Assembly (NCBI GenBank): GCA_016840855.1
Contig: JAEORO010000198.1
Span: forward strand, 1-44,497
Direction of reading: 5' to 3'
DNA length: 44,497 nt
From: Candidatus Thorarchaeota archaeon
GTDB taxonomy: Archaea; Asgardarchaeota; Thorarchaeia; Thorarchaeales; Thorarchaeaceae
The notes beneath the pieces were generated by a model. It worked only from the letters and a program-made list of their open reading frames with translations. It was not told where the DNA came from and did not search any database. Both the position numbers and the translations under genes were made by a program. Position 1 is the first letter of the stretch. The number at the start of each line of letters is the position of its first letter. Below are positions 7,897 through 44,497 of the stretch, piece by piece.

Positions 7897-7944
7897 AATC
7901 TATCATTGTCATACAAACATTTTACATTCAAACAAGAAAATTGA

Positions 7945-9183
7945 TTGTTTGTGACCTCGGTATCGCTCGCAGCAGTTGACTCTGAAACATGTGAAGCATC
8001 AAAGCTTCTTTACAACCATTTATGCGCTCCACTCAGTGAGCTTGATATGCAGATGGTTCAATCAATTCCAGAAGGCGGGAATTGGAAAGATATTCCTCCC
8101 TCAATTGTTCAGAAATCTGCACGTCTTATTCAAATACACAAATCTGGAGGTCGAACAACGTATTATGGCAGATTAAACAAGGACCTGCCAAGCTACACAA
8201 TTAATACATACTTTAATCGTCCTGGAAATGGCACTTTCATCCATCCTGAACAGAATCGTTTGATTTCATTGCGAGAAGCAGCTCGTCTACAATCATTCCC
8301 AGATCACTTTCGTTTCCTCGGTAGTCTTAGCTCACGATACAAGCAGATAGGAAATGCAGTACCACCATTACTAGCTCGTGCAGTTGCATCAATCTTGAAA
8401 TCCGGTCGTGTAATAGATCTCTTCTCTGGAGCAGGTGGTCTCTCAGAAGGATTTCAGCAAGCTGGAAATGAAATTATCCTCGCATCTGATTGTAATTCGA
8501 ATATGTGTAAAACTTTTGCACATAACCATCCTAACTCTGCAGTCATTAAAGCAGATCTCCATCATGACAAACATGCGAATCAACTTCTTGAAGCAATTGA
8601 AAACACTCTTTCTGGAAGAACTCTGAATTCACTCATTGGAGGTCCTCCATGCCAAGGATTCTCAACTGCAGGCAATAGAGATACATATGATTCCAGAAAT
8701 AATCTTGTTTTTCAAATGCTGGATTTTGTACGGGTCCTTATGCCTGATACTGTTGTGATTGAGAATGTTCCTGGATTGAAGTGGATACAACATGGTAAGA
8801 TTTTGGGAATAATCCTGAAGACACTAGAAGAGATGGGATATTCGGTATGCAAACTTCATTTGCGTGCTGAGGAATATGGTGTTCCACAGCGGCGAAGAAG
8901 AATTTTCATTATTGGCTCAAGGTATGCACTTACTGAAGAATTTCCAGTGGGTTATTTTGCACCTATTATCCATGGGAGGAAAAAGAATATGGTCAATCAG
9001 AGTTGTGACAACTTGTTTCCCCCTGTGAATGTCAGGGACGCCGTCTCTGATCTCCCTCAGATTTCCTCGGGTAGTGGCGACGATTTAGTTGAATACGATT
9101 GGTGTTGGATTAAAACTGACTATCAAAGACTTATGCGGGATTCGATGACCTTGGAGGATTTCATTATAAAGAGAACCAAGTAA
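7945..9183 (+). CDS. Circularly permuted C5-cytosine DNA methyltransferase
   Basis: TRD, motif IX (REAARLQSFPD) and motif X (QIGNAVPP) precede motifs I (DLFSGAGG), IV (GGPPCQGFS), VI (ENVPG) and VIII (QRRRRIF). Confidence 0.92.
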   Translation: MFVTSVSLAAVDSETCEASKLLYNHLCAPLSELDMQMVQSIPEGGNWKDIPPSIVQKSARLIQIHKSGGRTTYYGRLNKDLPSYTINTYFNRPGNGTFIHPEQNRLISLREAARLQSFPDHFRFLGSLSSRYKQIGNAVPPLLARAVASILKSGRVIDLFSGAGGLSEGFQQAGNEIILASDCNSNMCKTFAHNHPNSAVIKADLHHDKHANQLLEAIENTLSGRTLNSLIGGPPCQGFSTAGNRDTYDSRNNLVFQMLDFVRVLMPDTVVIENVPGLKWIQHGKILGIILKTLEEMGYSVCKLHLRAEEYGVPQRRRRIFIIGSRYALTEEFPVGYFAPIIHGRKKNMVNQSCDNLFPPVNVRDAVSDLPQISSGSGDDLVEYDWCWIKTDYQRLMRDSMTLEDFIIKRTK

Positions 9184-11061: not shown

Positions 11062-13029
11062 GTGATACACAACGTATTGTTGATAGAAAAGGCGAATGGT
11101 AACGTTGTGGTTAAGACTAGATTCTGGAAGATAGATTTCTTAGAACATGATATACATGATTTCTTAGCAGGTTATATGGATCTAAAGACAACCGAGGGTC
11201 TTGCTGAGGACACACCTGTCTTTGTTGCAGAGAAGCACAAGGTATTCCACGGATCTGTTGATGGAGACATGGTTCTTCTATTCGTTACAGATGGCCGTGA
11301 TGAGGACCGTGTGATTCAACATCGTGTGCGTGAGGGGGCTTCACGGATCTCTACAGCACTTCGAGGGAACAGTATTGGTTACATTCGAGATAACCTCGAT
11401 GATATCCTTGGTGAGCTCATCTTTACACGATTCAAGGTCAGCTTTGTGGGAAGCGGTGGTGTTGGAAAGAGCACCCTACTTAGACTCCTTTTTGGGAAAG
11501 AGCCTGCTCCTGGAGGTTATGTGCCCACTATCAATGTCGCGGTTGATTCATCTGAAACGATACAGTTTGGTACGTTCTTGGTCACTGTCTGGGACTTCGC
11601 TGGACAGGCTGTGTTCCAAGACCTCTGGAGTTTTTACTTCTCTGGGACAGATGTAATCTTTCTAATTACTGATTCAAGTTTCCGGAATGTCATGCAAACC
11701 AAGTCTCTCTTACGGAATATTCGTAAGGAAGCACCTGCAGTGCCGCTATTCATCATAGCCAATAAACAAGACCTTCCAGAGTCAATGAAAGCTGAGAAGA
11801 TCAAGCGTTTATTGGGTGCTCCGACCTTTGCTATGGTTGCCACAGACAAGTCGAGACGTGAAGAGTTCATCAGACTTATGTTAGAAGTCGCTGCAAAGAC
11901 AGTGGGAGTCACACTTCCTGACTTGCCAATTAGTGAAATGATCACAGTACGAAGAGGAACTCAGGAAATTGACCAGCCAGGTGCACAATCGGCAGCAGCT
12001 GCAACAACTCAGGAAACAGCTACTGAAACCGGATTTGAAACAGTGCCTTATGCGGATGGGAGCATAGAAGCAATAAGTGAAACTCCAATCCCAACAAATA
12101 CTCAAGCTGTGAAAATGGCTGAAGCCGCTGAAACGGAAGCTGAAACGCCAGCAGTGCAAAAGGCTGTAGCTAAGCAAATTTATGACAGATCAAAGATACT
12201 CCATCTCCTACTTATTGTACAGAAAGAGGGTATGCCTGATGTTGCTTTCCACTTAAAGTATGGAGATGATGAAATTGATACAAATGCAGTCGCTTCTCTG
12301 ATTTCTGCTCTAGACTCATTTGGTGGGATAGACGCTGAGCCTGCTGATGGATCTAGTGCTACAGATGCATTAGAAACCATAGAGCATGAAGGAAATCTTG
12401 TAATGGTCGAAAAATCAAAGCACTTTGTTCTGGCTCTGATTGTCACAAATGATAGTGAAGAAGATGAACAGAGAAGTATCATAACTTCACTCTTGTTTGA
12501 AATTGAGCAGAAATACGAAGATGTCTGGGACACTTGGAAGGGAGACGCGTCTGTTTTCGAGTCATCCGTCTTTAATGTTATTACTAGGTTACCAGTAAAG
12601 CCAATTAGCTTTGACTATATTATACGTGTACGTGAAGCTGGAAAGCCACTACCATTCAAGAATCGTGAAGTGGGACAGGCGATAGTGGCTGTCAAAAGCG
12701 CGATAGAAAGTAATGATACGATTGGTGGACTAGTCAGGAGTCTAGATTTGCCTCGTGAGACAGTACTTGGCTGTCTTCAAATAATGAATCAGTATGAATG
12801 GATAGATTTCCGAGTAGAAATTGGACCAACAAGCCACTTGAAGAAATTAGGCCAAGTAGACGAGGATACACAAAAAGCCTATGGAAATGTTGTCGTCAAG
12901 TTTGTTGATCTTTGTGATGGGACACTCCCGCTGCAAGATGTCGTTAAGAAACTCAATGTCAGTCTGCCAGCTATGAAGTTTGTGGCTACCAAACTCGTTC
13001 TCGATGGAGTCCTAGAAGTAGTTGCTTAA
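11062..13029 (+). CDS. Multidomain small GTPase (Arf/Rab-like) with longin-like domains and C-terminal tandem wHTH
   Basis: G1 GSGGVGKST, G2 YVPT, G3 WDFAGQ, G4 NKQD, G5 VAT; N-terminal MIHNVLLIEK.NG longin-like start; A/E/T-rich linker; second longin-like domain; DGTLPLQDVVKKLNV..KLVLDGVLEV wHTH. Confidence 0.9.
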   Translation: MIHNVLLIEKANGNVVVKTRFWKIDFLEHDIHDFLAGYMDLKTTEGLAEDTPVFVAEKHKVFHGSVDGDMVLLFVTDGRDEDRVIQHRVREGASRISTALRGNSIGYIRDNLDDILGELIFTRFKVSFVGSGGVGKSTLLRLLFGKEPAPGGYVPTINVAVDSSETIQFGTFLVTVWDFAGQAVFQDLWSFYFSGTDVIFLITDSSFRNVMQTKSLLRNIRKEAPAVPLFIIANKQDLPESMKAEKIKRLLGAPTFAMVATDKSRREEFIRLMLEVAAKTVGVTLPDLPISEMITVRRGTQEIDQPGAQSAAAATTQETATETGFETVPYADGSIEAISETPIPTNTQAVKMAEAAETEAETPAVQKAVAKQIYDRSKILHLLLIVQKEGMPDVAFHLKYGDDEIDTNAVASLISALDSFGGIDAEPADGSSATDALETIEHEGNLVMVEKSKHFVLALIVTNDSEEDEQRSIITSLLFEIEQKYEDVWDTWKGDASVFESSVFNVITRLPVKPISFDYIIRVREAGKPLPFKNREVGQAIVAVKSAIESNDTIGGLVRSLDLPRETVLGCLQIMNQYEWIDFRVEIGPTSHLKKLGQVDEDTQKAYGNVVVKFVDLCDGTLPLQDVVKKLNVSLPAMKFVATKLVLDGVLEVVA

Positions 13030-23283: not shown

Positions 23284-24471
23284 CTAAATGATACCTACCT
23301 TTTTCCCTACCTTCTCGTATGCTGCCAATGCAATGTCTAGCTGCTCCTTGGTCAGACCCGAGTTCATCATGTTTCGAATTCTTGCCTTGTCACGCGCAAC
23401 CATCGGGAATACGATTGGTAGAGCAAGGATTCCTTCGTTGTAGAGACCATCGCTCAGTGCGACTGCCTTTGAGCTCTCACCAGTCATTGCTGGAATAATT
23501 GGTGTCTGGCTGTTACCAGTATCAAAACCCATCTGCTGGAGTCCCTTCACGAAGTACTCTCTATTATCCCAGAGGGTCTTAACATGCTCCTCCTCAGTTT
23601 CAAGAACATCGATAGCAGCAATGCATGCAGCTGCTGTAGCAGGTGGGTGCGAAGCACTAAGGAGCCAAGAACGACTCTTGTTCAAAGCATAATTTACCAT
23701 GTCGCGACTTCCAGAAACATGCCCACCCATTACGCCAAACGCCTTTGAGAAAGTACCCATCTCGAAATGCACATCTTTGTGAGTTAGGTTGAAGTGCGAA
23801 ACGATACCGCGGCCACCCTTGCCCAAGACTGCCTCCCCATGTGCATCGTCAACATAGATCATCGCGCCGTGTGGTTTTGCGGCCTTGACAATTCCGTCGA
23901 GAGGTGCGATGTCTCCATCCATGCTGAAAACTCCGTCAGTGATGACTAGCATCTTGACAGGATTCTCTTTCTCAGCCTCTGCAAGTACTCTCACTAAGTC
24001 TGCGACATCATTGTGCTTGTATACAAAACGAGTTGCTTTTGTTAAACGAACACCGTCGATGATGCTACCATGATTCAACTCATCTGAGATGATGGCGTCT
24101 CCTTTATCCACAAGTTGTGGAATAAGTCCTTCATTGGTTGTGAAACCTGCACTGTATGTGAGTGAGGCTTCAGCACCTTTGAACTTTGCAAGTCTATGTT
24201 CTAACTCTAGGTGCAGGTCCATGGTTCCTGCGATTGCTCGAACCGAGCCAGAACCAACTCCGTGGGTCTTGATAGCCTGAAGAGCTGCTTCCTTCATCTT
24301 AGGATGGTTGCTCAAGTTGAGGTAATTGTTACTGCAGAGCATGATTACCTCTTTGCCATCAATCTTTGCACGAGGAGTTGAAGGCCCCTGCAACTCCCTG
24401 ATTTTCCAGTCAAAATTCTGTTCCACGAGTTTGTTATACTCGTCTCTCATCCAAGCAATGGGATCTCTCAT
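23284..24471 (-). CDS. kbl: Glycine C-acetyltransferase (2-amino-3-ketobutyrate CoA ligase), class II PLP aminotransferase family
   Basis: CSNNYL, GSGSVR.IAGT, SDELNHGSIIDG, TDGVFSMDGD, DDAHG, GTFSKAFG, ARIR. ATG at 24471 follows a GGTGA RBS. Confidence 0.85.
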   Translation of the reverse strand: MRDPIAWMRDEYNKLVEQNFDWKIRELQGPSTPRAKIDGKEVIMLCSNNYLNLSNHPKMKEAALQAIKTHGVGSGSVRAIAGTMDLHLELEHRLAKFKGAEASLTYSAGFTTNEGLIPQLVDKGDAIISDELNHGSIIDGVRLTKATRFVYKHNDVADLVRVLAEAEKENPVKMLVITDGVFSMDGDIAPLDGIVKAAKPHGAMIYVDDAHGEAVLGKGGRGIVSHFNLTHKDVHFEMGTFSKAFGVMGGHVSGSRDMVNYALNKSRSWLLSASHPPATAAACIAAIDVLETEEEHVKTLWDNREYFVKGLQQMGFDTGNSQTPIIPAMTGESSKAVALSDGLYNEGILALPIVFPMVARDKARIRNMMNSGLTKEQLDIALAAYEKVGKKVGII

Positions 24472-24596
24472 AGTTTTCACCGTGAATATGAACGGTATAG
24501 CGCCACTCAATTGGGGGACGTACACTCAACCGCGCCGCGAATTTTCGAGTATATATGAGCTTCGCTTCGTACTTATTTTCAGGTCAAAATCCGCTA

Positions 24597-25829
24597 TCAG
24601 ATTTTGAGAACGGTTCGGGGCATTAGCCGTGCTACAATTTCACACATTTGGAGATCCAAAGTACGCCTCACAACCTCTCTCCCTCTATAGGTAAATTCAA
24701 GTTCACGCGGACTGGAAAAGATCTTTCTTGATTCATGACCTGTTGCAAGGTCAGTAATGTAATAGCGCGTTCCATTACTTGACTCAATAACCTGCTCGAT
24801 GCCAAGAATCGATTGAAATTTATATCCTCCACCATGAGGCAAAATATTGGCGTTCAATAATCTATGTTTGACATTATGTTTCTCTGCACGTTTTGTAAAT
24901 CCTAAGTGCTCTATAATCTCTTCATTGAAGTTTGGAAGACCTCGAACTAGATATGCTGGAAGATCAGCTCTAAGAGCTATTGGCAAAAGGCTGCTCTTGT
25001 CTTTACCCTGAATATCTTGACAACCGAGAAGATGTTCATTCATGTTCAGAAGTCCTTGGTGAATCGGATTGCATATCTCTGTAAACTCACCGAAAATTGC
25101 TTCAGCAGCCCTCAATCGTTTTTTCTTACTTAACTCACAAGCAAAGTCATTCAATCTTAGATACTCTGATGCATTGTCTTCCATGACAACCCATGTTTTT
25201 CCAAAAGGTGTATCAAACTCTTCAGCCATATTTCCTAGAATTGTACTCTTATGGCGATATAATCCAAAACCAAAACGTGTAGAATTATCTCCTTTCAGCT
25301 CAGGTACTGAACCATGGATTATGAATACATAGTTGAACTTCGAATCTGCAGTATTATCGACTGGTTTGTATCGAAACAGGTCAATGAAATGATTGCTTAC
25401 TGAGAAATCCCATTCAATCGAAACATTGTCAATTATTTCCTTTTCCGCGAGAACAGCACTAATGGATTCAATAAGAGCGTCCATGTCAGGTAATTCTTGT
25501 AAACCACCTACAAGCATTCCACATGCATTGGGCATCGAATCCAGAAACACTATCTTCTGTTTTCCATCTCCCCATGATAGTTTTCCCCCGTATCCAAGCC
25601 CACTTTGCCATCTTCTAAGATTGCGGGTCACAGTCGCGTCTGGCGCACTGATAAATGTGGCATTAGGTTCAAGACCAATTTGATACTGCACCCAGTGAAT
25701 TTTGCTTAATCCATACTTCATATTTGCTATGCATAATGCATTCGCAGAGTCGTGCAAACCACTTGAGAAGATATGCTTCTCTGCTCTCTTTAGCATCTGA
25801 CTTCTTGTCAAATCTTTGAAGTCCGTCAC
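24597..25829 (-). CDS. Divergent RtcB-like (RNA ligase fold) protein
   Basis: Motifs APDA, PNACGM, SNHFID, IIHGS, IHQG, PHGGG and C-terminal P..VLK occur in the same order as RtcB PD, DxxCG, GNHF, HxGS, HN, HGAG and the terminal K. Confidence 0.7.
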   Translation of the reverse strand: MTDFKDLTRSQMLKRAEKHIFSSGLHDSANALCIANMKYGLSKIHWVQYQIGLEPNATFISAPDATVTRNLRRWQSGLGYGGKLSWGDGKQKIVFLDSMPNACGMLVGGLQELPDMDALIESISAVLAEKEIIDNVSIEWDFSVSNHFIDLFRYKPVDNTADSKFNYVFIIHGSVPELKGDNSTRFGFGLYRHKSTILGNMAEEFDTPFGKTWVVMEDNASEYLRLNDFACELSKKKRLRAAEAIFGEFTEICNPIHQGLLNMNEHLLGCQDIQGKDKSSLLPIALRADLPAYLVRGLPNFNEEIIEHLGFTKRAEKHNVKHRLLNANILPHGGGYKFQSILGIEQVIESSNGTRYYITDLATGHESRKIFSSPRELEFTYRGREVVRRTLDLQMCEIVARLMPRTVLKI

Positions 25830-25869
25830 GATTTTCCTCTCCTTCAGAGTTTAATTAGATACTAGTATG

Positions 25870-26544
25870 CTATGTCTTCGATGAAGCCTGCACTAATCCT
25901 TCCTCATCGAATAAGTGTCTTATCGATGCCATTCGTGATTGTAATCTATCTTCAATAATTAGTAGAAATTCTAGGAGTTCGTGATGCAAATTATCTCCCA
26001 TTTTTCTACTATAATCAAAGTTTAATTTGGCATAGTCAAATTTTCGTTTTTCCATGTACTTGGTCAAGATGTTCTCTAAACTTCCGGTTTTCCCAACAAA
26101 TCCCCTCAAAAGTCCCATCAATCCAAGACGATCTAGTGTGTCTGCATCGTAGACAATTTTCTCCTCTGCAGTTTCTGGTGGTATCTTTGAAGTTGGAGTA
26201 TGTCTGATTACCACTCGAGCTACTGTATCACGAATCTTGGGTTTGACTTGTAATCCATCAAGATACTCCTCAGCTAGTGTGCCCCCAAGAAGTCCATGTA
26301 TGTGGTCGAATGCACGATTAGTCTTTCCAATGTCGTGTAATAACGCTCCAGCAAAGCAAATGAAGGGGTCCACTTTTTCTTCTATGTTCTTGGCAATCTC
26401 AATTGTGTAGCGACAGACTGTAAAGACATGAGAATAATCATGGCTGTCGCTAACTGCATGCGCATCCCTGACGAACTCCTGCATCTGAAGTAGCATCTTG
26501 AGCTCTTTTTCAGTTAATAACCGTGAGAAGACCATTTTACTCAA
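25870..26544 (-). CDS. HD-domain metal-dependent phosphohydrolase
   Basis: HDYSH...ALLHDIGK...H...H...VYDADTLD. Confidence 0.92.
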   Translation of the reverse strand: MSKMVFSRLLTEKELKMLLQMQEFVRDAHAVSDSHDYSHVFTVCRYTIEIAKNIEEKVDPFICFAGALLHDIGKTNRAFDHIHGLLGGTLAEEYLDGLQVKPKIRDTVARVVIRHTPTSKIPPETAEEKIVYDADTLDRLGLMGLLRGFVGKTGSLENILTKYMEKRKFDYAKLNFDYSRKMGDNLHHELLEFLLIIEDRLQSRMASIRHLFDEEGLVQASSKT

Positions 26545-29152: not shown

Positions 29153-30718
29153 ATGTATCTTGATATTCTTCGAAATGATCCTCCCTTGAAACGTTATGTT
29201 TCAAGAGGAGATACTCCCGATGATGTTGATATCCCTGGACCCCATCAAGATGCAGACCGTGCGATCCTTCGAGTGGCAAGATTCACAATGAAAGACCACA
29301 CTCCCAGACTCCAACCAATACTTGGCGATGCTGGGATGGGGAAAACTCATCTCTTCTGGGCAATTAAAGAAAAGGAGTATCTTTTTGCAGCTGGGAATTT
29401 TCTCGTTGTATATGTTCCATCTCCACCATCTCCAGTTCGAATTCCCCTTCATCTTCACGCTTGCATTGTTGATGAAGCTGGAGATGAGCTATTCGAAGAA
29501 ACCGTTGATATGTTAATCACTAAGTTTGGAGGTGTTAGAGGAGTAACACACGAGATTTACGACTATACATATGCAATGGAACGGCTCCTTGTGGATTACC
29601 CGGGTATTTCTTCTGATGCTGTCAAGGCTTTACTACGTTACCGACTAGATCCCGCTTCAAGAGACCTTGCACGACGTTGGCTTCTGGGAGATGCTTTGAA
29701 CGAAGCTGAGCTCGAGCGATTAGGTGTTCGGACTATCCTCGAAGAAGATGACGTCACACTAGCGATGCTGAAGATTTTGACTGAGGGGTCAGAGAAGCCT
29801 ATTGTTATGTTCGTTGATGAGATGGAAGGTCCATTTAATGCATATGGAGAAGAAGCTGAACGTCACTTCCTAGAAGTATTGAAACGACTCTATAATGAAA
29901 CGAAAAATGTCGTGATTATTGCTTCTTGTTTGACTGATATTTGGGATAGAATATACTCTCTAGCTGACGGACCTACAAAATCCAGAATGGAGAGTCCTGT
30001 TCATCTAAAACCTTTCTCGAAAGATGATGTTTTTGCATTTGTAAAAGAAACTATGACTAATTACTGGCTACAACAAAACATTGAACCTCCCTCTGATCCA
30101 TTGTACCCATATACAGAGAATGATGTCACCGCAGCCTTTGATGTGAGCGAGGGAAATCCCCGAGAGGCGATTCGTCATTTAATTCCTCGCCTTGACGAGA
30201 TCCTATTTGACAAGAAAGAGCTTGAAATAATACCCCAAGAAGATTATGTTATCAAATTAACAGCAACAGTTGTTTTGAATTCGATTATAAAAGCTCTAAC
30301 TATAGCTGCAAAGCCACTTGGAATTGATGTTGAACTACAGGTTTCAGGAGCTGGAACACAGAAGCAAGAAGCAACAATTGTACAGTTGACGAGGGACAAC
30401 AAAACTCAATACATTGGCATCGATCTACCCAATGTAAAAGATTGGGATCGAAGTGGAGGCGTAGCTGCTTTCTATTCAGCAAATCGTCTCAAGAAAGTAT
30501 TAGATGTTAATGCTGTGAAAGCAACAATCATCGCAGTTCCTGCAGCGACAAAAGGAGCGAAGTTTGAAGCTCTCGCTGAAGAGATTGGAAGTAACATGCT
30601 AACACTCCGTTTTGATGAGGAAACTGCGACTTTATTCATTCGTGAATCCAATGAGGAAATTCTCCCTCATGGATATGCAGAACACTTCACTGGGCTCATT
30701 GATGGTTTGTTTGACTGA
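29153..30718 (+). CDS. P-loop ATPase (AAA+/BrxD-like) with C-terminal alpha/beta domain
   Basis: Walker A GDAGMGKT, Walker B VMFVDEME, ARRWLLG, SRM arginine-finger-like segment, GNPREAIR. Confidence 0.8.
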   Translation: MYLDILRNDPPLKRYVSRGDTPDDVDIPGPHQDADRAILRVARFTMKDHTPRLQPILGDAGMGKTHLFWAIKEKEYLFAAGNFLVVYVPSPPSPVRIPLHLHACIVDEAGDELFEETVDMLITKFGGVRGVTHEIYDYTYAMERLLVDYPGISSDAVKALLRYRLDPASRDLARRWLLGDALNEAELERLGVRTILEEDDVTLAMLKILTEGSEKPIVMFVDEMEGPFNAYGEEAERHFLEVLKRLYNETKNVVIIASCLTDIWDRIYSLADGPTKSRMESPVHLKPFSKDDVFAFVKETMTNYWLQQNIEPPSDPLYPYTENDVTAAFDVSEGNPREAIRHLIPRLDEILFDKKELEIIPQEDYVIKLTATVVLNSIIKALTIAAKPLGIDVELQVSGAGTQKQEATIVQLTRDNKTQYIGIDLPNVKDWDRSGGVAAFYSANRLKKVLDVNAVKATIIAVPAATKGAKFEALAEEIGSNMLTLRFDEETATLFIRESNEEILPHGYAEHFTGLIDGLFD

Positions 30719-36467: not shown

Positions 36468-38084
36468 TCATGTGTCTGTAATCACATCATATGCGATGTT
36501 ATCTGAGTGGTCTCCTATCCTCTCCAAGTTTCTCAGAGTTTCGATAAAGACAGCATCTGCTTGAGGATCACAAATCCCTTTTCTAACTCGTTCTATATGT
36601 GCTGCTTTCAGCTTTCGTTCGAGCACATCGACTTGGTCTTCAAGTCTCTCAGCAACTTTAGCTAAATCTTTGTTCCTTGTCTTCAGAGCTTTAATTGCAG
36701 TTGAATAGGTGTCTTCAACAAGATCAAACATTTCTGTAATATCATTAGTGCCTTGCTGTGAAAATGTGATTCCGTTCCTCAATTTATCAAGGACAAACTC
36801 AGCAATGTTTGAAGTGAGGTCTCCCACACGTTCAATATCAGTAAGTATTGCCAGTAATTTGATTCTCCAGATTATATCTTCCTCGTTAAGATCCTCTTCT
36901 CTGATTTTATCAATGAAATCTTCAGTACTTCTGCATCTCTCATCAACGTCCTCTTCTAGGTTTATGACCTTTCTAGCATCCTCAAGGTCTTTCTTTAGCA
37001 GGGCTGTCTTACTGAGACTTATCATTTCAATGGTCTTTTCTGCTGTTCTCAGTATTTCTCGCTCAGACTCAAGAAGCGCAGCTTGCGGTAGATTTAGCAT
37101 CTCCTCATCAAAGAAATGTTTTCCAATTATCTCTCCTTCTTTGTCAGGAATTAGTTTTTCACAAAATCGAACCAGTAAGCCAACAAGTGGAATGAATATG
37201 AAGCTCACAATCACATTGAATATTGTGTGAGCATTAGCAATCTGACGGCGAGGATCTACATCGGTGAGTGTTACAAAATCTGAAAATGGAGCTAAAAACG
37301 GAAGAAAAAGCGCTACCCCTATCACATTGATCATTGCTTGTGCTATTGCTGTACGTTTTGCTGGTGAAGTAGCACCGATTCCTGCAAAGAGCTCCAAGAA
37401 ACATGTGCCAATATTCGCACCCATTACTAGCGCTATACCAGGTCCAAGATCAATTGCTCCAGCTCCACTCATAGCAATGACCAAACTCGTTGTTGCAGAA
37501 CTACTCTGAGTTACACCTGCAATGAGCGCACCAATGAGAATGCCAATTATTGGAATTGCGCCATAGTCATTGATGAGATTTCGAAAGAAAGGATAATCTG
37601 TGGTTAGTGGTTTAGCACCCTCTTTCATAAACTCCATTGCCAGAAATAGTAATCCCAAACTGAAAATTACTGTACCAATTAATTGCACTTTCTCTTTCTT
37701 TGAGAACATCTTGAGGAAGAATCCGATTGCGACAAGTGGCCAAAACGCTAAACCTACATCGAATGAAACAAGCTGAGCAGTAACTGTCGTTCCTATCTCA
37801 GATCCTAACATTACGTTGACGGACTGTCTGAACGTCATCATCCCTGCATTAACAAAACCTATCAAGGTAAGAACGGTAATACTTGAGCTCTGAGTCATGA
37901 CAGTCGCAGCAGTTCCTGCAGCCATCCCTTTCACTGGATTATTGCTTACCTTCTCTAGAACTCGCACGACACTCCGACCAGATATTTTTCCAAGTGTTTC
38001 TCGAAGCAGTGTCACACCATACATAAAGAGAGCAAGTCCGCCAATTATGTTGAAGGCGATTGTTAGTTCTTCCCACATAGCCAA
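36468..38084 (-). CDS. Na+/Pi cotransporter (NptA/SLC34 family) with C-terminal PhoU repeats
   Basis: Two QSSS motifs, GSEIGTT/GANIGT, ANAHTIFN; PhoU signatures DIERVGD and NLERIGDH. Confidence 0.95.
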   Translation of the reverse strand: MAMWEELTIAFNIIGGLALFMYGVTLLRETLGKISGRSVVRVLEKVSNNPVKGMAAGTAATVMTQSSSITVLTLIGFVNAGMMTFRQSVNVMLGSEIGTTVTAQLVSFDVGLAFWPLVAIGFFLKMFSKKEKVQLIGTVIFSLGLLFLAMEFMKEGAKPLTTDYPFFRNLINDYGAIPIIGILIGALIAGVTQSSSATTSLVIAMSGAGAIDLGPGIALVMGANIGTCFLELFAGIGATSPAKRTAIAQAMINVIGVALFLPFLAPFSDFVTLTDVDPRRQIANAHTIFNVIVSFIFIPLVGLLVRFCEKLIPDKEGEIIGKHFFDEEMLNLPQAALLESEREILRTAEKTIEMISLSKTALLKKDLEDARKVINLEEDVDERCRSTEDFIDKIREEDLNEEDIIWRIKLLAILTDIERVGDLTSNIAEFVLDKLRNGITFSQQGTNDITEMFDLVEDTYSTAIKALKTRNKDLAKVAERLEDQVDVLERKLKAAHIERVRKGICDPQADAVFIETLRNLERIGDHSDNIAYDVITDT

Positions 38085-38235
38085 CGGGTGTGCTACCCCT
38101 CACATGCTACATATGAATCTTGTGAGCAATCTTGTATGTTGATAGAATACACCTGATTTGATTCGGTAGAATCTCTTCATGGCCTTTCTTTTTTGTTCCA
38201 TAGCTGAAAAATCAAACAATTAATGATAATATTAG

Positions 38236-38369
38236 GTAATGATTACAATATGTAATAGTTTGATTACAAAAAGTAACTCTAATGCACAATTGGAAACATC
38301 AAGTAATCATTAGAATTATTATGAATAAGTGCAATACATTATGATAAGCTTACAATGTGTAACCATTAC
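38236..38369. promoter_or_regulatory. Array of GTAA/TTAC palindromes (candidate operator)
   Basis: TTACAA-N3-GTAA at 38243, 38264 and 38350; GTAA-N3-TTAC at 38236 and 38359, and at 38303 with one mismatch. Confidence 0.55.
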
Positions 38370-38394
38370 CAATTAAGTGTGGAGGAGTGATTAC

Positions 38395-39207
38395 TTGTCA
38401 AAGGCTTTCTCTGTGGCTTCTTGGAATGTGAAACATTTCAAATCCCCGCAAGCGCGAGCTGACAGAGCAGTTGGGTTTCTTCGCAAACAAGATGCAGACA
38501 TAATAGCTTTGTATGAAGTGTTTGGGAAGGACGTTTTTTCTGAGATGGTAAAACAATTTCCTGGGTACTCATTTCATATAACTGAAGGAAAACAATCACA
38601 GCAGATTCTTGTTGGTATTAGGAATTCTCTTGATTCCTTCACGACTCAAAAGCTTGAGTTCACTTCTGGAACCACTCATGTCAGCCCAGGTCTTCTGGTA
38701 ACAGTAATTCACGAAGGAAGTCTCTATCCTATGCTTTTCATGAACATAGATAGTACACCCACCATTCAAGGAATGGGTCTTCGTCACGAGATGATGCTCA
38801 GAGCATTCAAGTATCGCGGACGTTTAGACAAACTTGCATGGGAGCAGGGAGATGCTAAAGTGAATTACATCTTTCTTGGAGACCTCGAGATCATGGGAAT
38901 GAATCATCCTTACGGGCGGAGTATTGATGGTGAAACCGAGCTTCGAAAGTGGGATGATGATGAATGTAAGAAATACAACATGCGCCGGTTAAAGAAGTCA
39001 CATCACCTCACATACAGAAGCTGCAATGGTACCCACGAGGGGGACTATGATCAAGTCTATGTTGCTGAACACCTGAAGTTCACGAAATTTGGCGAATCCG
39101 AAGTGGATGTTAGGGGTTGGATTACAGAACCAGAAAATGCGCAAAAAGAATGGCGAGAGAAATATTCACCACATTCCCTGATTTACTTTGAAGTGAAAAA
39201 GGTTTGA
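38395..39207 (+). CDS. Exonuclease/endonuclease/phosphatase (EEP) family protein, catalytically degenerate
   Basis: VASWNV, DIIALYEV, FLGDLE, YDQV, YSPHSLI; TTG start after GGAGGAG. Confidence 0.8.
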   Translation: MSKAFSVASWNVKHFKSPQARADRAVGFLRKQDADIIALYEVFGKDVFSEMVKQFPGYSFHITEGKQSQQILVGIRNSLDSFTTQKLEFTSGTTHVSPGLLVTVIHEGSLYPMLFMNIDSTPTIQGMGLRHEMMLRAFKYRGRLDKLAWEQGDAKVNYIFLGDLEIMGMNHPYGRSIDGETELRKWDDDECKKYNMRRLKKSHHLTYRSCNGTHEGDYDQVYVAEHLKFTKFGESEVDVRGWITEPENAQKEWREKYSPHSLIYFEVKKV

Positions 39208-39660
39208 TGGTAAAAAGAATTGAATTTACCGTTTAGTTATTCCTCTTGACAACCATTATACTATTCAATTTGCTTTATATCAAACATGTACTTGATATAA
39301 ATTATTAAATAATTATATAAATTTATTAATCTATAATTTACAATAATATTTATTATTAAAACATAGTTCTAACATTTTAATTGTTTGTATATTCTTTATA
39401 CTTATAAAACATCTATTTGACTATATAAAATCATATAGAAATCGAAATTAAGTAAAAATTAACTAATTATTATATTTATTAGTACGTTATCTATGTTAAA
39501 TATGTCAAATAGATATTATAAATTATAAAGGGAATATATAATAATATATTTAGACCAATTTAGATATATATATAATAATTCATTAAATATTTTATAGTAT
39601 AAAAAAATGTTGCACTAAATAGCTCTTATGATATTTAGCTAAAGAAACTCCAAAAGAAAT
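39208..39660. other. Very AT-rich non-coding spacer
   Basis: About 450 bp, visibly far more AT-rich than the flanks (roughly 80%), with no ORF in the track. Confidence 0.85.
39386..39540. repeat. Long imperfect inverted repeat
   Basis: Arms 39386-39421 and 39504-39540 with a perfect 11-bp core ATCTATTTGAC/GTCAAATAGAT. Confidence 0.7.
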
Positions 39661-39708
39661 ATAGGCGAGTGAAGGTAGGTATCTTCGCTTCCAAATTAAG
39701 GGAGAGGG

Positions 39709-42700
39709 ATGCATAAATTGAAGAAAAGAGCCATCTTAGCGATAGCTATATTCTTGGCTGTTTTTATGGTAACAAGTGCAGGTTCTGCACCATATTTTAT
39801 CACACCAGTAAATTCAGTCAGATCTTTTGAAATTGTTGATAATATGTATACAGCCTCTGAGGCTGTGATATGGACCGATAAGCCTGACTATCTACCAGGA
39901 GAAATAGTCACGATATTTGGTTCAGGATTTCTTGCAGATTCGACCATTGAGATAAATGTGACTCGTCCTGATGCAACAATTGACAAAGATGTTGCACCCA
40001 CTAATGGTACTGGGTGTTTTGAGTATTATTATGATCTTGATGGAATTATAGGTCAATACAATGTCACAGCAACTGATGGAATTTCGGTTGCAGCCACATT
40101 TTTCACCGATGGACTCCATGTAGATTTCAGTCAATATGCAAACATTGCTGATCAATGGACTGGAGCAATTTTAGGAAGTTCCAACTCCTTATACTTTGAA
40201 GGAAGGTCAGTTCCACAACGAGTAGCTTTTGTTGATATTTTTGCTACAACAGGAAATGAGCATTGTTTGACCTTCTCACACATGGCAACTAAGGGCGGAA
40301 TACATGCATATGATTGGCTAACAGGATGGAACCAAGGAAATGAACCTCCATTGGATTTCAATCCTTGGGGTGAAGAAATAGGTCCGCATGTGACATCTCA
40401 AATCTGTGAAGATCTATACAATTCTGAATACTATATCTTTGTGGATGTTCCAGATGATAGCTTCACTAGCATGAGTTACGAGGGCAGTGGAAGCTATCAA
40501 GACAGGATAGATGCATATGAAGCAGTAAATGGGAATCGACAAATAAAAATCAGTGGGAATGCGGAAATCAGCTCCGCGTCTTTCACATCCTTCTCTCATA
40601 ACCCACTGAGTGATGACACTGGTGATTCCGATATCGAATACGAACTAACTTGGGTTTCTGCATCTGACCAGATATTGATACAAATGGGTGGACATCTTGC
40701 TGTTTCAGGAAATCCAACTGGTAATCCTGTTGCTTGGGGAACAGGTCTTGGAGCAAGCGTGATATCAGGTGGCTCTTATCACTTTAAGCTCAAACAACTA
40801 GATTGTTACTCTCTCGGGTCTCAAGACAATCAAATTAAGGGTGAAGCAATTGTACCAGCAGAAGCAGATCTTGGAATTGTGAAAACCGGACCTGCATCAG
40901 CTGAGGTTGGGGATGAAATTACCTATGAATTCGAAGTCACCAACTATGGACCTGGTGATGCTCTAAATGTTATAGCTACAGATAATCTACTTGGGTCAAT
41001 AACGCTGTCTGGCCTTACTGATGAAGATGGAGATGGTTTTGCTGATGATCTTGCTTTCGATGCAATTGCAACTGGTACTGCTACCCATATTATCCCTATA
41101 CCAGGAAACGATCCCATAGTAGATACAGTCTTGGTTGAATCATCAACCCTAGATAGTAATACTGAGAATAATCAAGACAGTCATGAAGTTGATGTGCTTC
41201 GAACTGGAGTTTCTATACAGAAGATAGGTCCTACATCAGCAGAGGTTGGAGAACTTATCACATATACGATTACAGTGACCAATACTGGTGAGGTTGACTT
41301 GTATATCACCTCTCTCAATGATAATCTTCTTGGAGATTTAGCTAGCTTCATTAGCGATGGAGTCATTACATTATTAGAGGGCTCAGAAACATTTGATGTC
41401 ACATATACTGTTATGTCCAGTGACCTTGATCCATTGCCAAATGAGGTCACTGTTCACGTAGAAAATCAGTTTGAATGTGATCCAAAAACTGATTCGGCTA
41501 GTTGGGAGGTGGATATTCTTCATCCAGTTATCAGTTTAACAAAAACTGCTACCGATGGATTTGGTTTTGAGATATTTGAAGCCTATATTGGGGATACGAT
41601 TACCTATGTGTTTAAGGTCGAGAATACTGGTGATGTTGATCTAACAGATATCATCCTTTCTGATATTACAGCTATTTGTGATGGTGCGCTGATTCGAGGT
41701 CCTGATGAATTTGGAGATAATGATGATATCCTTGAACCTGGTGAAATTTGGATCTACACCTGCACGCACGTTGTCACACTTACCGACCCAGACCCACTTC
41801 CTAATGTTGCTTCAGTCGAGGGTACTTATGCTCCTGGTAAAACTGTCGACGACACTGATGATGCGACTGTAGATATCCTGCACTATGCAGGCACTCTCCA
41901 CGTCGACAAGACAGGTCCAGCTGAGGTCAATCATGGTGAAACGGTATTCTACTATGTCTATGTATGGTACACAAGTTCAGATGGATCACCAGCTCAGAAC
42001 GTTTTGGTCACTGATAATCACTACACCTTAACCTTTGACGCGGCGAGCGATGATGACAGTGATGGGCAGCTCGATGTTGGCGAAATTTGGATCTACTATG
42101 TAGAGGTGACTATTGCAGATCATTTTGACGGTGAGGAGGACCCAATAGTTAACATTGCCACAGCTTCAGGAGAGGATCTTGATGGTGACCCAGTGGGTCC
42201 GGTGTCTGACAGTGTTTCAACAAATATTCTGCACTATGAAGGCACTCTCCACATTGACAAGTACGGACCGGAAACAGTCTATCACGGTGACACGGTAACA
42301 TACATAGTAGAAGTGTGGTACACCAGTCCTGACAACTCCCCAGCTCAGAACGTCATAGTTACTGATGACCACTACACGCTGGTCTTCATGAGTGGCGATC
42401 TTGACTCAGACAACCTGCTGGATGTGGGAGAGGTCTGGGTCTATCAAGCCACGGTGACCATTTTAGCTCACGATGACCTTGAGGAGGACCCGATAGTCAA
42501 CATAGCAGACGCCACTGGTCAAGACCTAGATAGTGATGCTTTGGCACAAGTTCAGGACAGTTGGACAACAGATATTCTACATGCAGAGGGCACTCTAACT
42601 GTTGTGAAGACCGGTCCTGTCGCCGCATTCCATAATGACCCGGTGACATACACAATTGAGGTGACTTATTCGAGTCCAGATGACTCACCAGCTACTAATG

Positions 42701-44497
42701 TGGAGGTCTTAGATGACCATTACGGACCGGCGACCTATGTAAGTGGGGACTTTGATGGAGATGGATGTCTTGATGTGGATGAAACTTGGGTCTTCCAGGT
42801 GTTTGGTTTCATTGTAGACATTCATGATTATGAAGAAGAAGACCCAATAATCAACACAGCCACTGCGACTGGTCAAGACCTTGATGGTGACGCTGTGACT
42901 CCTGTGTTTGACACATGGGTGACAGACATTCTACACCGAGAGGGCACTCTGACAGTAATGAAGACAGGGCCAGAAACAGCTTATCATGGTGACTCTGTGA
43001 TTTTCTACGTGGATGTGACCTATTCTAGTGACGATGGGTCTCCAGCCCAAAATATTGTGGTCACAGACGACAAGTACACCACCGTGACCCGTGTCCGGAT
43101 TGGTGACGATGATGATGGTGACGCATTACTCGAGCTTGGTGAAGTCTGGCACTACGAGGTATCAGGTACTATTCCAGCCATGCATGTTGAAGGAGAAGAG
43201 GACCCCATAGTCAACACAGCCACTGCGACTGGTCAAGATCTTGATGGCGATACTGTGAATCCTGGGTCTGACACATGGACCACAGACATCTTGCACCGAG
43301 AGGGCACTCTGACAGTGGTGAAGACAGGGCCAGAAACAGCTTATCATGGTGACTCTATGACTTACTATGTAGAGGTGACCTATTCTAGTGACGATGGATC
43401 TCCAGCGCAAAATATTGAGGTCACAGATGACAAGTACGCTATAGTGACTCGTGTGGATATTGGTCTAGAGGATGATAGCGATCTACTCCTCGAGCCTGGT
43501 GAAGTCTGGTACTACGAAGTGTCCGGTACTATCGGAGCTCATGTTGAGGGAGAAGAAGATCCAATTGTCAACACTGCTACTGCGACTGGACAGGACCTTG
43601 ATGGCGATGCAGTGACTCCTGGGTCTGATGACCATTCGACAGACATCTTACACACTGAAGGCACTCTGACAGTGGTGAAGACTGGGCCAGAAACAGCTTA
43701 TCATGGAGCATCAGTGACCTATGAGGTTGCTGTGACTTATACAAGTGTTGATGGGTCTCCAGCTCAGAACATTGTGGTCACTGATGATGAGTATGCCACA
43801 GTAATACGTGTACGAGTTGGTGATAATGATGATGGTGACGCATTCCTCGAATTTGGGGAGATTTGGTACTACGAAGTGTCAGGTACTATTGGAGTCCACG
43901 ACGACGATGAAGAAGACCCAATTGTCAACATTGTTACAGCTACAGGTAAAGATCTTGATGGCGATGCAGTGACTCCTGGATCTGATGACCATTCGACAGA
44001 CATTTTGCACACTGAAGGCACTCTAACAGTAGTGAAAACCGGACCAGAAGCAGCTTATCATGGTGACTCTGTGACCTATTATGTGGATGTAACTTACTGG
44101 AGTTCTGATGGCTCACCAGCTGTTGATATTCATTTAACAGATGACCACTATACTGCGGTAATCTTCACTGGCGGGGATGCTGATGGAGATGGGTATCTTG
44201 ATGTGGATGAGATTTGGCACTATGAAGTGTCAGGTATGATTGAAACTATGCATGTTGAGGGAGAAGAAGACCCAATTGTCAACTTTGCTACAGCTACAGG
44301 TCAAGATCTTGATGGAGATGAAGTGACTCCTGGGTCTGACACATGGACTACAAATATCCTCCACCGAGAAGGCACTCTGACAGTGGTGAAGACCGGGCCA
44401 GAAACAGCTTATCACGGTGACTCTGTGACTTACTACGTGGATGTGACCTATTCTAGTGACGATGGGTCCCCAGCCCAAAACATTGAGGTCACCGATA
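39709..44497 (+). CDS. Giant secreted DUF11-like repeat surface protein/adhesin (partial, >1590 aa; absent from ORF track)
   Basis: Open frame from ATG 39709 (or TTG 39718) to the window end. Signal peptide KKRAILAIAIFLAVFMVTSAGSA; TDKPDYLPGEIVTIFGSGF Ig-like domain; a ~250-aa unique domain; then repeats such as ADLGIVKTGP...GDEITY...VTN.G. Confidence 0.92.
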   Translation, partial: MHKLKKRAILAIAIFLAVFMVTSAGSAPYFITPVNSVRSFEIVDNMYTASEAVIWTDKPDYLPGEIVTIFGSGFLADSTIEINVTRPDATIDKDVAPTNGTGCFEYYYDLDGIIGQYNVTATDGISVAATFFTDGLHVDFSQYANIADQWTGAILGSSNSLYFEGRSVPQRVAFVDIFATTGNEHCLTFSHMATKGGIHAYDWLTGWNQGNEPPLDFNPWGEEIGPHVTSQICEDLYNSEYYIFVDVPDDSFTSMSYEGSGSYQDRIDAYEAVNGNRQIKISGNAEISSASFTSFSHNPLSDDTGDSDIEYELTWVSASDQILIQMGGHLAVSGNPTGNPVAWGTGLGASVISGGSYHFKLKQLDCYSLGSQDNQIKGEAIVPAEADLGIVKTGPASAEVGDEITYEFEVTNYGPGDALNVIATDNLLGSITLSGLTDEDGDGFADDLAFDAIATGTATHIIPIPGNDPIVDTVLVESSTLDSNTENNQDSHEVDVLRTGVSIQKIGPTSAEVGELITYTITVTNTGEVDLYITSLNDNLLGDLASFISDGVITLLEGSETFDVTYTVMSSDLDPLPNEVTVHVENQFECDPKTDSASWEVDILHPVISLTKTATDGFGFEIFEAYIGDTITYVFKVENTGDVDLTDIILSDITAICDGALIRGPDEFGDNDDILEPGEIWIYTCTHVVTLTDPDPLPNVASVEGTYAPGKTVDDTDDATVDILHYAGTLHVDKTGPAEVNHGETVFYYVYVWYTSSDGSPAQNVLVTDNHYTLTFDAASDDDSDGQLDVGEIWIYYVEVTIADHFDGEEDPIVNIATASGEDLDGDPVGPVSDSVSTNILHYEGTLHIDKYGPETVYHGDTVTYIVEVWYTSPDNSPAQNVIVTDDHYTLVFMSGDLDSDNLLDVGEVWVYQATVTILAHDDLEEDPIVNIADATGQDLDSDALAQVQDSWTTDILHAEGTLTVVKTGPVAAFHNDPVTYTIEVTYSSPDDSPATNVEVLDDHYGPATYVSGDFDGDGCLDVDETWVFQVFGFIVDIHDYEEEDPIINTATATGQDLDGDAVTPVFDTWVTDILHREGTLTVMKTGPETAYHGDSVIFYVDVTYSSDDGSPAQNIVVTDDKYTTVTRVRIGDDDDGDALLELGEVWHYEVSGTIPAMHVEGEEDPIVNTATATGQDLDGDTVNPGSDTWTTDILHREGTLTVVKTGPETAYHGDSMTYYVEVTYSSDDGSPAQNIEVTDDKYAIVTRVDIGLEDDSDLLLEPGEVWYYEVSGTIGAHVEGEEDPIVNTATATGQDLDGDAVTPGSDDHSTDILHTEGTLTVVKTGPETAYHGASVTYEVAVTYTSVDGSPAQNIVVTDDEYATVIRVRVGDNDDGDAFLEFGEIWYYEVSGTIGVHDDDEEDPIVNIVTATGKDLDGDAVTPGSDDHSTDILHTEGTLTVVKTGPEAAYHGDSVTYYVDVTYWSSDGSPAVDIHLTDDHYTAVIFTGGDADGDGYLDVDEIWHYEVSGMIETMHVEGEEDPIVNFATATGQDLDGDEVTPGSDTWTTNILHREGTLTVVKTGPETAYHGDSVTYYVDVTYSSDDGSPAQNIEVTD
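41890..44497 (+). repeat. Tandem intragenic repeats of 348-360 nt (7 complete + 1 partial)
   Basis: GGCACTCT unit starts at 41890, 42241, 42589, 42943, 43303, 43660, 44017 and 44371. Each encodes GTL.V.KTGP..A.HG...Y...DGSPA.N..VTDD...E.W.Y...EEDPIVN.ATATGQDLDGD. Confidence 0.92.

Follow-up and report, generated by a model that had tools for sequence, protein, structure and literature searches.

The gene pair and the question it raises

A 44,497-nucleotide stretch of DNA from a Candidatus Thorarchaeota archaeon (contig JAEORO010000198.1 of assembly GCA_016840855.1; this whole stretch is called the window) encodes on its minus strand a 410-aa protein without a Pfam or NCBIfam match, preceded by an HD-domain phosphohydrolase. 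In an initial annotation, made from the sequence alone, the 410-aa protein was regarded as a highly divergent relative of the ligase RtcB, and the two genes as a candidate pair for RNA or nucleotide repair. Does this protein belong to RtcB and, if so, does it still act on the substrates of RtcB? As detailed below, the protein, termed FAM in the following, is best explained as the founder of a family of its own within the RtcB superfamily, one that has carried no annotation. In this family the catalytic core of RtcB appears to be kept, the substrate-binding shell is rewired, and the HD protein is a conserved partner of its own. To our knowledge, RtcB is regarded as a single family with its own fold and GTP/His-guanylylation, which has been studied almost only as a tRNA/XBP1 ligase. 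A second family with the RtcB fold would widen the known uses of that chemistry.

The two genes and the spacer between them are arranged as follows.

25870..26544, minus strand: gene for the 224-aa HD-domain phosphohydrolase of the YpgQ/YedJ type (TTG start; Pfam HD)
25830..25869, minus strand: spacer of 40 nt from the HD stop to the FAM start, with a Shine-Dalgarno-like GGAGAGG (read from the sequence)
24597..25829, minus strand: gene for the 410-aa RtcB-superfamily protein FAM (GTG start; no Pfam or NCBIfam match)

The position of the HD gene, which had been described as upstream on the same strand with a gap of 40 nt, agrees with the list of open reading frames (ORFs) and with the PF01966 match of its product (E 1.2e-11). 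The Shine-Dalgarno-like GGAGAGG is found 7–9 nt ahead of the GTG start of FAM. The true start of the HD protein may be an ATG three codons inside the ORF, because its homologues start with MF.R.LT. Probably, both genes are part of one transcript. No minus-strand terminator-like site was found in the HD-FAM spacer by a scan whose patterns are bacterial consensus patterns, the host being an archaeon; for the same reason the promoter and terminator scans as a whole are uninformative.

FAM is a distant relative of RtcB

In direct sequence searches the similarity to RtcB is low, as the initial annotation had stated. BLASTP against canonical archaeal RtcB gave a best E of 0.6 and the Pfam model of RtcB was silent at E≤10. 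Indeed, the FAM protein of the window has no Pfam match of any kind even at E≤10 and neither an NCBIfam nor a PADLOC match, so that it lies outside PF01139 and the NCBIfam families, and no match to FAM was found among the PDB sequences by phmmer or with the family profile. Among 45 distant members of the family, three are matched weakly by PF01139 (E 0.007–0.02, far under the 27-bit cut-off). Three family members were also found with a canonical RtcB hidden Markov model (HMM), at E 4e-5 to 6e-3.

Comparison of profiles with profiles is far more telling. The alignment of the FAM family comprises 106 sequences, down to 22% identity, and all residue counts given below refer to this set. It was compared by hhalign with an alignment of 13 canonical RtcBs, namely E. 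coli K-12 rtcB and twelve diverse RtcBs of phages and archaeal viruses, which are 23–60% identical. The two profiles match with 98.9% probability and an E of 2.2e-17 over 286 columns (family positions 56–397 against RtcB 43–401). As a control, the family was compared with the unrelated alignment of the HD partner, which resulted in 0.28% and an E of 0.21. The 45 distant members still match E. coli RtcB alone with 95.1% and an E of 3e-8.

The model fold points in the same direction. The AlphaFold2 (AF2) model of FAM, built on the 106-sequence alignment, has a predicted local distance difference test score (pLDDT) of 96.8 and a predicted template modelling score (pTM) of 0.94. A Foldseek search of the PDB with this model yielded 16 matches at E≤1e-3, followed by a next match with an E of 0.06 and a probability of 0.07. 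Among the 12 of the 16 matches listed, all are RtcB or RTCB, including P. horikoshii RtcB, T. thermophilus TTHA1785 and the human and zebrafish RTCB; the remaining four are further chains of the listed entries. The best match is 4dwq_A (E 4.4e-9). In the viral structure library BFVD the top match is an RtcB-type ligase (E 2.9e-10). In a language-model search of the Atlas, 25 of 30 matches fell into the RtcB set, and with the RtcB clusters excluded no usable match was obtained. The template modelling (TM) scores between the FAM model and the RtcB structures are 0.42–0.50, with 10–12% identity and a global rmsd of 8–14 Å. Thus, profile comparison and fold search uphold the proposed relationship. 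FAM shows homology to RtcB along nearly all of its sequence, and its model has the RtcB fold; since the TM-scores reach only 0.42–0.50 and the identity only 10–12%, it is best described, as judged from the model, as a distant relative with the same fold.

It is very improbable that FAM is a non-catalytic relic of RtcB, be it a pseudoenzyme or a structural protein, or that its motifs match RtcB by chance. The missing Pfam, NCBIfam and PDB sequence matches and TM-scores not exceeding 0.50 would fit such an explanation. On the other hand, four histidines are kept in 106/106 and a cysteine in 103/106 sequences down to 22% identity, the hhalign E of 2e-17 contrasts with 0.21 for the control, and the Foldseek matches are exclusively RtcB. 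A chance match of motifs is excluded by the hhalign E of 2.2e-17 together with the RtcB-only Foldseek matches.

The initial annotation had also suggested that the protein represents a distinct clade. In a quick maximum-likelihood tree, for which the tool warns of long branches meeting, a single branch with an SH-aLRT of 100 splits the 15 canonical RtcBs from the 106 family members, in agreement with this suggestion. Net charge and pI fail to separate the FAM family from RtcB.

Residues of the active site

The seven motifs listed in the initial annotation are present in the given order: APDA (62–65), MPNACGM (99–105), SNHFID (145–150), IIHGS (170–174), PIHQG (255–259), LPHGGG (330–335) and VLK (407–409). 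Only the description of the last one as terminal has to be corrected, as its lysine is the penultimate residue and the protein ends with VLKI.

The role of the corresponding residues is known from P. horikoshii RtcB (Pho), with E. coli numbers (Eco) in brackets. According to PMC9745838, metal M1 is bound by Cys98, His234 and His329 (Eco C78, H185, H281) and metal M2 by Asp95, Cys98 and His203 (Eco D75, C78, H168); His404 attacks the α-phosphate of GTP, Asn202 and Asn330 contact phosphates, and Lys480 and Glu206 read the guanine. In PMC8051266, Asn202 is located at the 5'-OH, and the 5'-OH strand is held at its first two phosphates by Arg238 (Eco R189). The codons of the retained counterparts in the window are the following.

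25521..25523, minus strand: Cys103, counterpart of Cys98(Pho)/Cys78(Eco), metal-bridging in RtcB (hhalign; kept in 103/106)
25386..25394, minus strand: Asn146-His147-Phe148 (NHF motif), counterparts of Asn202-His203(Pho)/Asn167-His168(Eco) (N in 104, H in 106, F in 104 of 106)
25314..25316, minus strand: His172, counterpart of His234(Pho)/His185(Eco), M1 ligand in RtcB (106/106)
25056..25061, minus strand: His257-Gln258, counterparts of His329-Asn330(Pho)/His281-Asn282(Eco) (H in 106, Q in 80 of 106)
24834..24836, minus strand: His332 in PHGGGY, counterpart of the guanylylated His404(Pho)/His337(Eco) (P331 and H332 in 106/106)
24603..24605, minus strand: Lys409 (penultimate residue), counterpart of Lys480(Pho)/Lys407(Eco), guanine O6 contact in RtcB (K in 70, R in 15 of 106)

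The pairing by hhalign and the family counts thereby bear out the retained equivalents of C98, NH, H234, H329, H404 and the lysine that the initial annotation had listed. The four invariant histidines are H147, H172, H257 and H332. The latter is aligned to H337 in the SHGAG motif of E. coli and is flanked by the nearly invariant glycines G333 (102/106) and G335 (105/106). Further conserved pairs are D64 (103/106) with Eco D48, R238 (103/106) with Eco R247, and Y381-R382 with Eco Y380-K381 (Y in 86 and F in 11, R in 98 of 106). As judged from this alignment, FAM keeps the counterparts of all M1 ligands (Cys103, His172, His257), of two of the three M2 ligands (Cys103, His147), of the asparagine (Asn146) and of the nucleophile (His332). 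Lys409 and Asp150, which is placed at the position of Pho Glu206, are both invariant in 33 close relatives, so that the guanine-contacting lysine and the acidic residue at 150 are presumably kept in the subfamily of the window. Hence, the part of the RtcB site that serves nucleotidylation looks intact. By homology to the crystal structures of RtcB, the Cys and His side chains are predicted to cluster in space.

The surroundings of this core are changed. The aspartate of the DxxC motif had been described as replaced (PNAC), and the D-x-x-C spacing is indeed not kept (D-SMPNA-C / P-N-A-C). Eco D75 is paired by hhalign with D97 across a three-residue insertion, M99–N101. The replacements of HN by HQ and of HGAGR by HGGGY likewise hold for most of the family (Q258 in 80/106, Y336 in 85/106). 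Eco H50 corresponds to T66. The counterpart of Eco R189 is P176, a position occupied by P in 42, by S in 17 and by R in only 14 of the 106 sequences, and that of Eco R341 is Y336. Eco S344 and R345 are also lost; R341 and R345 are the arginines that follow the nucleophile in RtcB. In turn, two conserved elements are specific to the family, namely the block TRN..RW.SGFGYGGK at residues 68–83 (R69, N70, R73, W74, G79–K83) and the N-terminal helices (residues 1–55). The residues that hold the 5'-OH strand in RtcB are gone from FAM.

Size and spread of the family

FAM is matched by 1318 clusters (90% identity) at E≤1e-3. Among the matches listed (120 of 1318), all 120 are without a Pfam domain and all given names are 'hypothetical protein'; more than 1000 such 'hypothetical proteins' would thus gain an annotation. 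A search with the FAM profile against 1.84 billion representatives resulted in 334 clusters (50% identity) at E≤1e-3, and canonical RtcB was never reached by this search. A tblastn search of 50,697 phage records with FAM gave no match. Our literature search, whose reach covered neither InterPro/Gene3D superfamily tags nor non-open papers, retrieved no title or abstract start that describes the family.

Of 185,579 species genomes scanned, 233 encode relatives of FAM. From these, 80 loci were kept, which together with the window make up a set of 81 (loci other than the window are numbered with an L), with flanks of up to 6 kb per side and less where the contig ends. The archaeal hosts are Asgard archaea of the Thor-, Loki-, Hel- and Hermod-type, Bathyarchaeia and Methanocellales; the bacterial hosts belong to Desulfobacteria, Spirochaetota, Planctomycetota, Clostridia, Chloroflexota and Actinomycetota. 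The closest relative, with 93% identity, is found in a metagenome-assembled genome (MAG) of a Thorarchaeota archaeon. The family is also present in the cultured Asgard archaea Promethearchaeum syntrophicum MK-D1 (L067) and Lokiarchaeum ossiferum (L049), which makes recombinant assays and structures directly feasible.

Archaeal and bacterial members share a median identity of 49.6%, about the same as the 51.0% within archaea. Therefore, FAM is under strong constraint and has moved between the domains. As a separate observation, the FAM proteins of L035 ('Bathyarchaeota' MAG) and L036 ('Deltaproteobacteria' MAG) are 99.3% identical, which points either to an error in binning or to a transfer that took place very recently.

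Longer fused forms were not found in the search with the window protein. The only fusions seen in the family are P0138, which carries an aminoglycoside phosphotransferase (APH) kinase domain, and P0162 (565 aa), with an extra tail to which nothing could be assigned.

The HD partner

The HD protein matches Pfam PF01966 and, among PDB sequences, 2pq7, 5dqv (B. subtilis YpgQ) and 3gw7 (YedJ) at E 2.6e-9 to 5.5e-6. Its model has a pLDDT of 89.6, and the best Foldseek match is YpgQ (5dqw/5dqv, E ~1e-6, TMt 0.75–0.77), with YedJ also found. The residues H35, H39, H70, D71, H83, H115, D133, D135 and R147 are invariant in 35/35 HD sequences and include the complete metal set H..HD..D (H39, H70-D71, D135). 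We therefore predict that the partner is a metal-dependent phosphohydrolase of the YpgQ/YedJ type. YpgQ is described in PMC8177086 as a Mn-dependent (d)NTP pyrophosphohydrolase, and the extended pattern H..HD..H..H..D is tied there to dinuclear sites.

For the analysis of the neighbourhoods, 929 ORF proteins were extracted from the 80 loci and the window and clustered, and HD orthologues were defined by an E≤1e-60 with their own profile. In line with the pairing proposed in the initial annotation, the HD gene is conserved beside the orthologues of FAM. It is found in the flanks of 38/81 loci, window included, with 39 genes in total, of which 38 are on the same strand as FAM and 34 lie within 300 bp. 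In 33 cases the two genes are directly adjacent, in four cases a single short ORF (73–160 aa) lies between them, and one HD gene is 1.8 kb away. The HD gene is located upstream in 24 loci (Asgard archaea, Clostridia, some Bathyarchaeia) and downstream in 14 (Spirochaetota, Desulfobacteria, Chloroflexota, one Planctomycetia, one Bathyarchaeota). Adjacency thus extends over Asgard archaea, Bathyarchaeota, Bacillota, Spirochaetota, Thermodesulfobacteriota, Chloroflexota and Planctomycetota. In the family tree it recurs in most clades and changes state 14 times, and in the Thorarchaeota-type clade it is found in 14/14 members. P. syntrophicum and L. ossiferum carry HD orthologues of ~62% identity elsewhere in the genome, unlinked to FAM. 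Since the adjacency is conserved, the HD protein is functionally coupled to FAM.

FAM beside canonical RtcB

Within the 44.5-kb window neither a canonical rtcB nor an archease gene was found. The initial annotation had raised the question whether FAM genomes hold a separate canonical RtcB and an archease, and at least two of them do. A canonical RtcB is encoded within 4 kb of FAM in L018 and L028 (PF01139, E 1e-165 and 8e-177), and an archease gene (PF01951, E 1e-43) adjoins FAM convergently in 3/81 loci from two phyla (L018, L028, L030). In the Spirochaetota locus L018 (4215–7995), FAM and HD are convergent with an archease-rtcB operon, of which the archease is part. In the Bathyarchaeia locus L028 (1735–7777), the canonical rtcB is located 2.8 kb upstream and the archease directly downstream of FAM; the FAM/archease arrangement of L030 (2880–4629) is the same as in L028. 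FAM coexists, therefore, with the canonical ligase. In two phyla, the proximity to archease and rtcB hints at a link, although by a rough estimate it does not exceed chance, with ~0.2–0.3 such loci expected and two independent ones observed.

These loci bear on the simplest explanation, according to which FAM is a fast-evolving orthologue of canonical RtcB that performs the standard ligation of 2',3'-cyclic phosphate and 5'-OH ends. The common fold, the shared catalytic Cys/His set and the archease next to FAM in L018, L028 and L030 speak in favour of it. However, a full-length canonical RtcB coexists in L018 and L028, and FAM is itself highly conserved, with ~50% identity across domains, and hence not fast-evolving. 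In addition, the branch with an SH-aLRT of 100 sets it apart from 15 canonical RtcBs, the RtcB-invariant residues H50, R189, N282, R341, S344 and R345 (Eco) are not kept, and the counterpart of D75 is shifted by the three-residue insertion and acidic in 77/106 sequences. Taken together, we consider this explanation improbable.

Other neighbours and the nature of the substrate

In eight Planctomycetota loci (L047, L048, L057, L058, L060, L064, L065, L052) the gene order is TetR, a DksA/YteA-like zinc-finger protein and FAM, followed by PolX in 4 and a THEP1-type NTPase in 3 of them; these loci are without an HD gene in their flanks. The NTPase family occurs in 5 loci overall. Directly downstream of FAM in four Clostridia-type loci (L039, L040, L055, L070) lies a gene for a TIGR00375 PHP/Zn-ribbon protein (410 aa, E 2.6e-58), which presumably belongs to the EndoQ family, in a stretch of the type ETF / HD / FAM / ProRS / NusA / IF-2. 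A gene for a Metallophos (calcineurin-like phosphoesterase) protein of up to 553 aa stands beside HD-FAM or FAM in L033 (2748–4409), L054, L043, L026 and L066. Ddl-like ATP-grasp genes are found near FAM in 5 loci. In the fusion protein P0138 (743 aa), the APH-type kinase domain (PF01636, residues 57–268, E 3e-20) is N-terminal to an RtcB-like domain with intact core residues.

Independently of this, the Metallophos protein weakly resembles CpdA/YfcE phosphodiesterases as well as an 'anti-phage phosphoesterase' model.

Some of these neighbours suggest a substrate other than nucleic acids. FAM could be a nucleotidyl-transferase or phosphodiesterase with the RtcB fold that activates or joins a small-molecule or protein phosphate. 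In this scheme a kinase would provide X-P, the enzyme would convert it to X-pp-N or X-P-O-Y, and the HD protein would hydrolyse the nucleotide by-product or the adduct. The loss of the residues binding the phosphates of the 5'-OH strand (Arg at position 176 in 14/106, Arg of HGAGR replaced by Tyr in 85/106), the kinase fused to an RtcB-like domain with intact core, the ATP-grasp/Ddl-like and the Metallophos neighbours in 5 loci each, and the hydrolysis of free nucleotides by the nearest characterised relative of the HD protein, as given in PMC8177086, are consistent with it. Yet the kinase fusion is a single representative. Moreover, the archease adjoining in 3 loci of two phyla and the PolX or TIGR00375 PHP gene directly downstream in 4 loci each point to nucleic acids, and the new conserved basic residues (R69, R73, K/R at 179, R382) could bind a polynucleotide. 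On balance we regard such a substrate as rather unlikely.

Proposed mechanism

The reading we prefer, and hold to be probable, is that FAM is a two-metal NTP-dependent enzyme that forms a His332-NMP intermediate and passes the NMP to a non-canonical phosphate acceptor, while the HD protein acts on the adduct or on nucleotides. FAM would bind two transition-metal ions of the Mn2+ type and an NTP, probably GTP, and would become covalently modified to His332-NMP. The NMP would then be moved to a phosphate-bearing acceptor, giving an X-pp-N anhydride, which may subsequently be attacked by a hydroxyl group (sealing). The acceptor or the geometry of the ends is most likely different from the canonical tRNA-exon pair, because the arginine of the 5'-OH strand and the arginines after the nucleophile are replaced and the family-specific block 68–83 is present instead. 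Our best guess is a different nucleic-acid end, in repair or capping; the main alternative is a phospho-substrate that is not a nucleic acid. The HD protein would cleave a nucleotide pyrophosphate bond, either in the X-pp-N adduct (removal or proofreading) or in free NTP or product nucleotides. The FAM-HD pair would work alongside the canonical RtcB-archease tRNA ligase and not in its place.

Several observations weigh against this mechanism. The structural divergence is large, as seen from the TM-scores of 0.42–0.50, the identity of 10–12% and the rmsd of 8–14 Å against RtcB structures. With regard to the two-metal site, position 97 is acidic in just 77/106 sequences; N101 (98/106) or D141 (96/106) may substitute for the M2 aspartate. 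Not all of the wider family has the guanine contacts: at position 150, D occurs in 42 and E in 12 of 106 sequences. No HD gene was found in the flanks of 43/81 loci, and the nearest solved relative of the HD protein, YpgQ, uses free (d)NTPs rather than nucleic-acid ends. None of the neighbours diagnostic of RNA repair (RtcA, Pnkp, Hen1) is recurrent around FAM. The contexts are varied instead (PolX with NTPase, TIGR00375 PHP, Metallophos, ATP-grasp/Ddl-like, TetR with DksA-like), and the kinase fusion of P0138 hints at small-molecule or protein substrates.

A more far-reaching interpretation is put forward only tentatively. FAM might be a second family with the RtcB fold that applies His-NMP/two-metal chemistry to a substrate not linked to RtcB, with the HD protein as its de-nucleotidylating or nucleotide-clearing partner. 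The substrate could then be a small molecule or protein that carries a phosphate, or else a non-canonical nucleic-acid end, in capping or in a repair of DNA/RNA 3'-phosphates that needs no 5'-OH strand. Both proteins would constitute an unrecognised two-component nucleotidylation system that Asgard archaea, Bathyarchaeia and anaerobic bacteria of sediments share through horizontal transfer.

Other features of the window

At a distance of 71 nt downstream of FAM, a PLP acyltransferase of the Kbl/BioF family is encoded (23284–24525, minus strand), whose match to TIGR01825 (E 1e-151) falls slightly short of the cut-off. The spacer between the two genes contains a TATATA box. This Kbl/BioF-like gene as well as the pirin and YhhN genes upstream were rejected as parts of the module, as they are common only to the two closest relatives, L002 and L008.

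Further away, the plus strand carries at 5650–9183 a restriction-modification-like pair, consisting of an Eco57I/TaqI_C-type N6-adenine methylase (748 aa) followed by a C5 cytosine methylase (412 aa). A 655-aa protein (11062–13029, plus strand) contains an Arf/Roc/Ras small-GTPase domain at residues 122–254, which is typical of the Asgard 'eukaryotic signature' GTPases. Together with the 93% identical relative of FAM in a Thorarchaeota MAG, this GTPase gene gives the window the look of an Asgard genome of the Thorarchaeota type. The 521-aa protein encoded at 29153–30718 on the plus strand shows weak AAA_16, STAND and NACHT-like matches below the Pfam cut-offs and may be a STAND NTPase. In the region 38001–44496 the GC content goes down to 0.347 at 38–40 kb. 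After this dip comes an ORF for a surface protein with DUF11, DUF7507 and CARDB repeats, which exceeds 1596 aa and is cut off by the end of the window. Scans for Rfam families and for tRNAs gave no match in the window.

Comparison with known systems

FAM resembles RtcB (PF01139; P. horikoshii, E. coli and human RTCB) in its fold and in motifs that are collinear along almost the entire protein. Retained are the counterparts of Cys98, Asn202-His203, His234, His329, His404 and Lys480, and also the arginine of the NR motif (Eco R247, R238 in FAM) and the tyrosine of the AYK motif (Y381). It differs from RtcB in that PD.H.G is changed to PDATVT (T66), HSGSRG to HGSVPE (without Arg238/R189), HN to HQ, and HGAGR..SR to HGGGY. 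Moreover, an N-terminal two-helix segment (1–55) and the GYGGK block are new, and the usual partner is the HD gene and not archease or RtcA.

Diverged paralogues of RtcB have been described in Myxococcus xanthus. RtcB1-3 of this species include DNA/RNA capping activities, and ligation and capping differ between paralogues of one genome, as stated in PMC10630183. They are, hence, a precedent for enzymes with the RtcB fold and differing activities. The M. xanthus paralogues are reportedly ordinary members of PF01139, whereas FAM falls outside this model and differs in the second shell of residues around its active site.

The HD partner is comparable to YpgQ/YedJ (PDB 5DQV/5DQW, 3GW7, 2PQ7) in sequence (E 2.6e-9 to 5.5e-6), in fold (TMt 0.60–0.78) and in the kept H..HD..D set. 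It differs from them by an identity of only 18–23% and by the invariant H83 and H115, which complete the extended pattern H..HD..H..H..D, while YpgQ is mononuclear.

With respect to the gene pair, a cluster in Runella slithyformis combines the gene of the HD-Pnk phosphoesterase with that of a covalent-nucleotidyl ligase, whose natural substrate is given as unknown in PMC6097658. By its description, this cluster is similar to FAM-HD in that an HD phosphoesterase stands beside an enzyme of the ligase type. In contrast to FAM-HD, the Runella ligase depends on ATP and belongs to the classic lysine-AMP type, and the HD domain of the cluster forms a fusion with a P-loop kinase.

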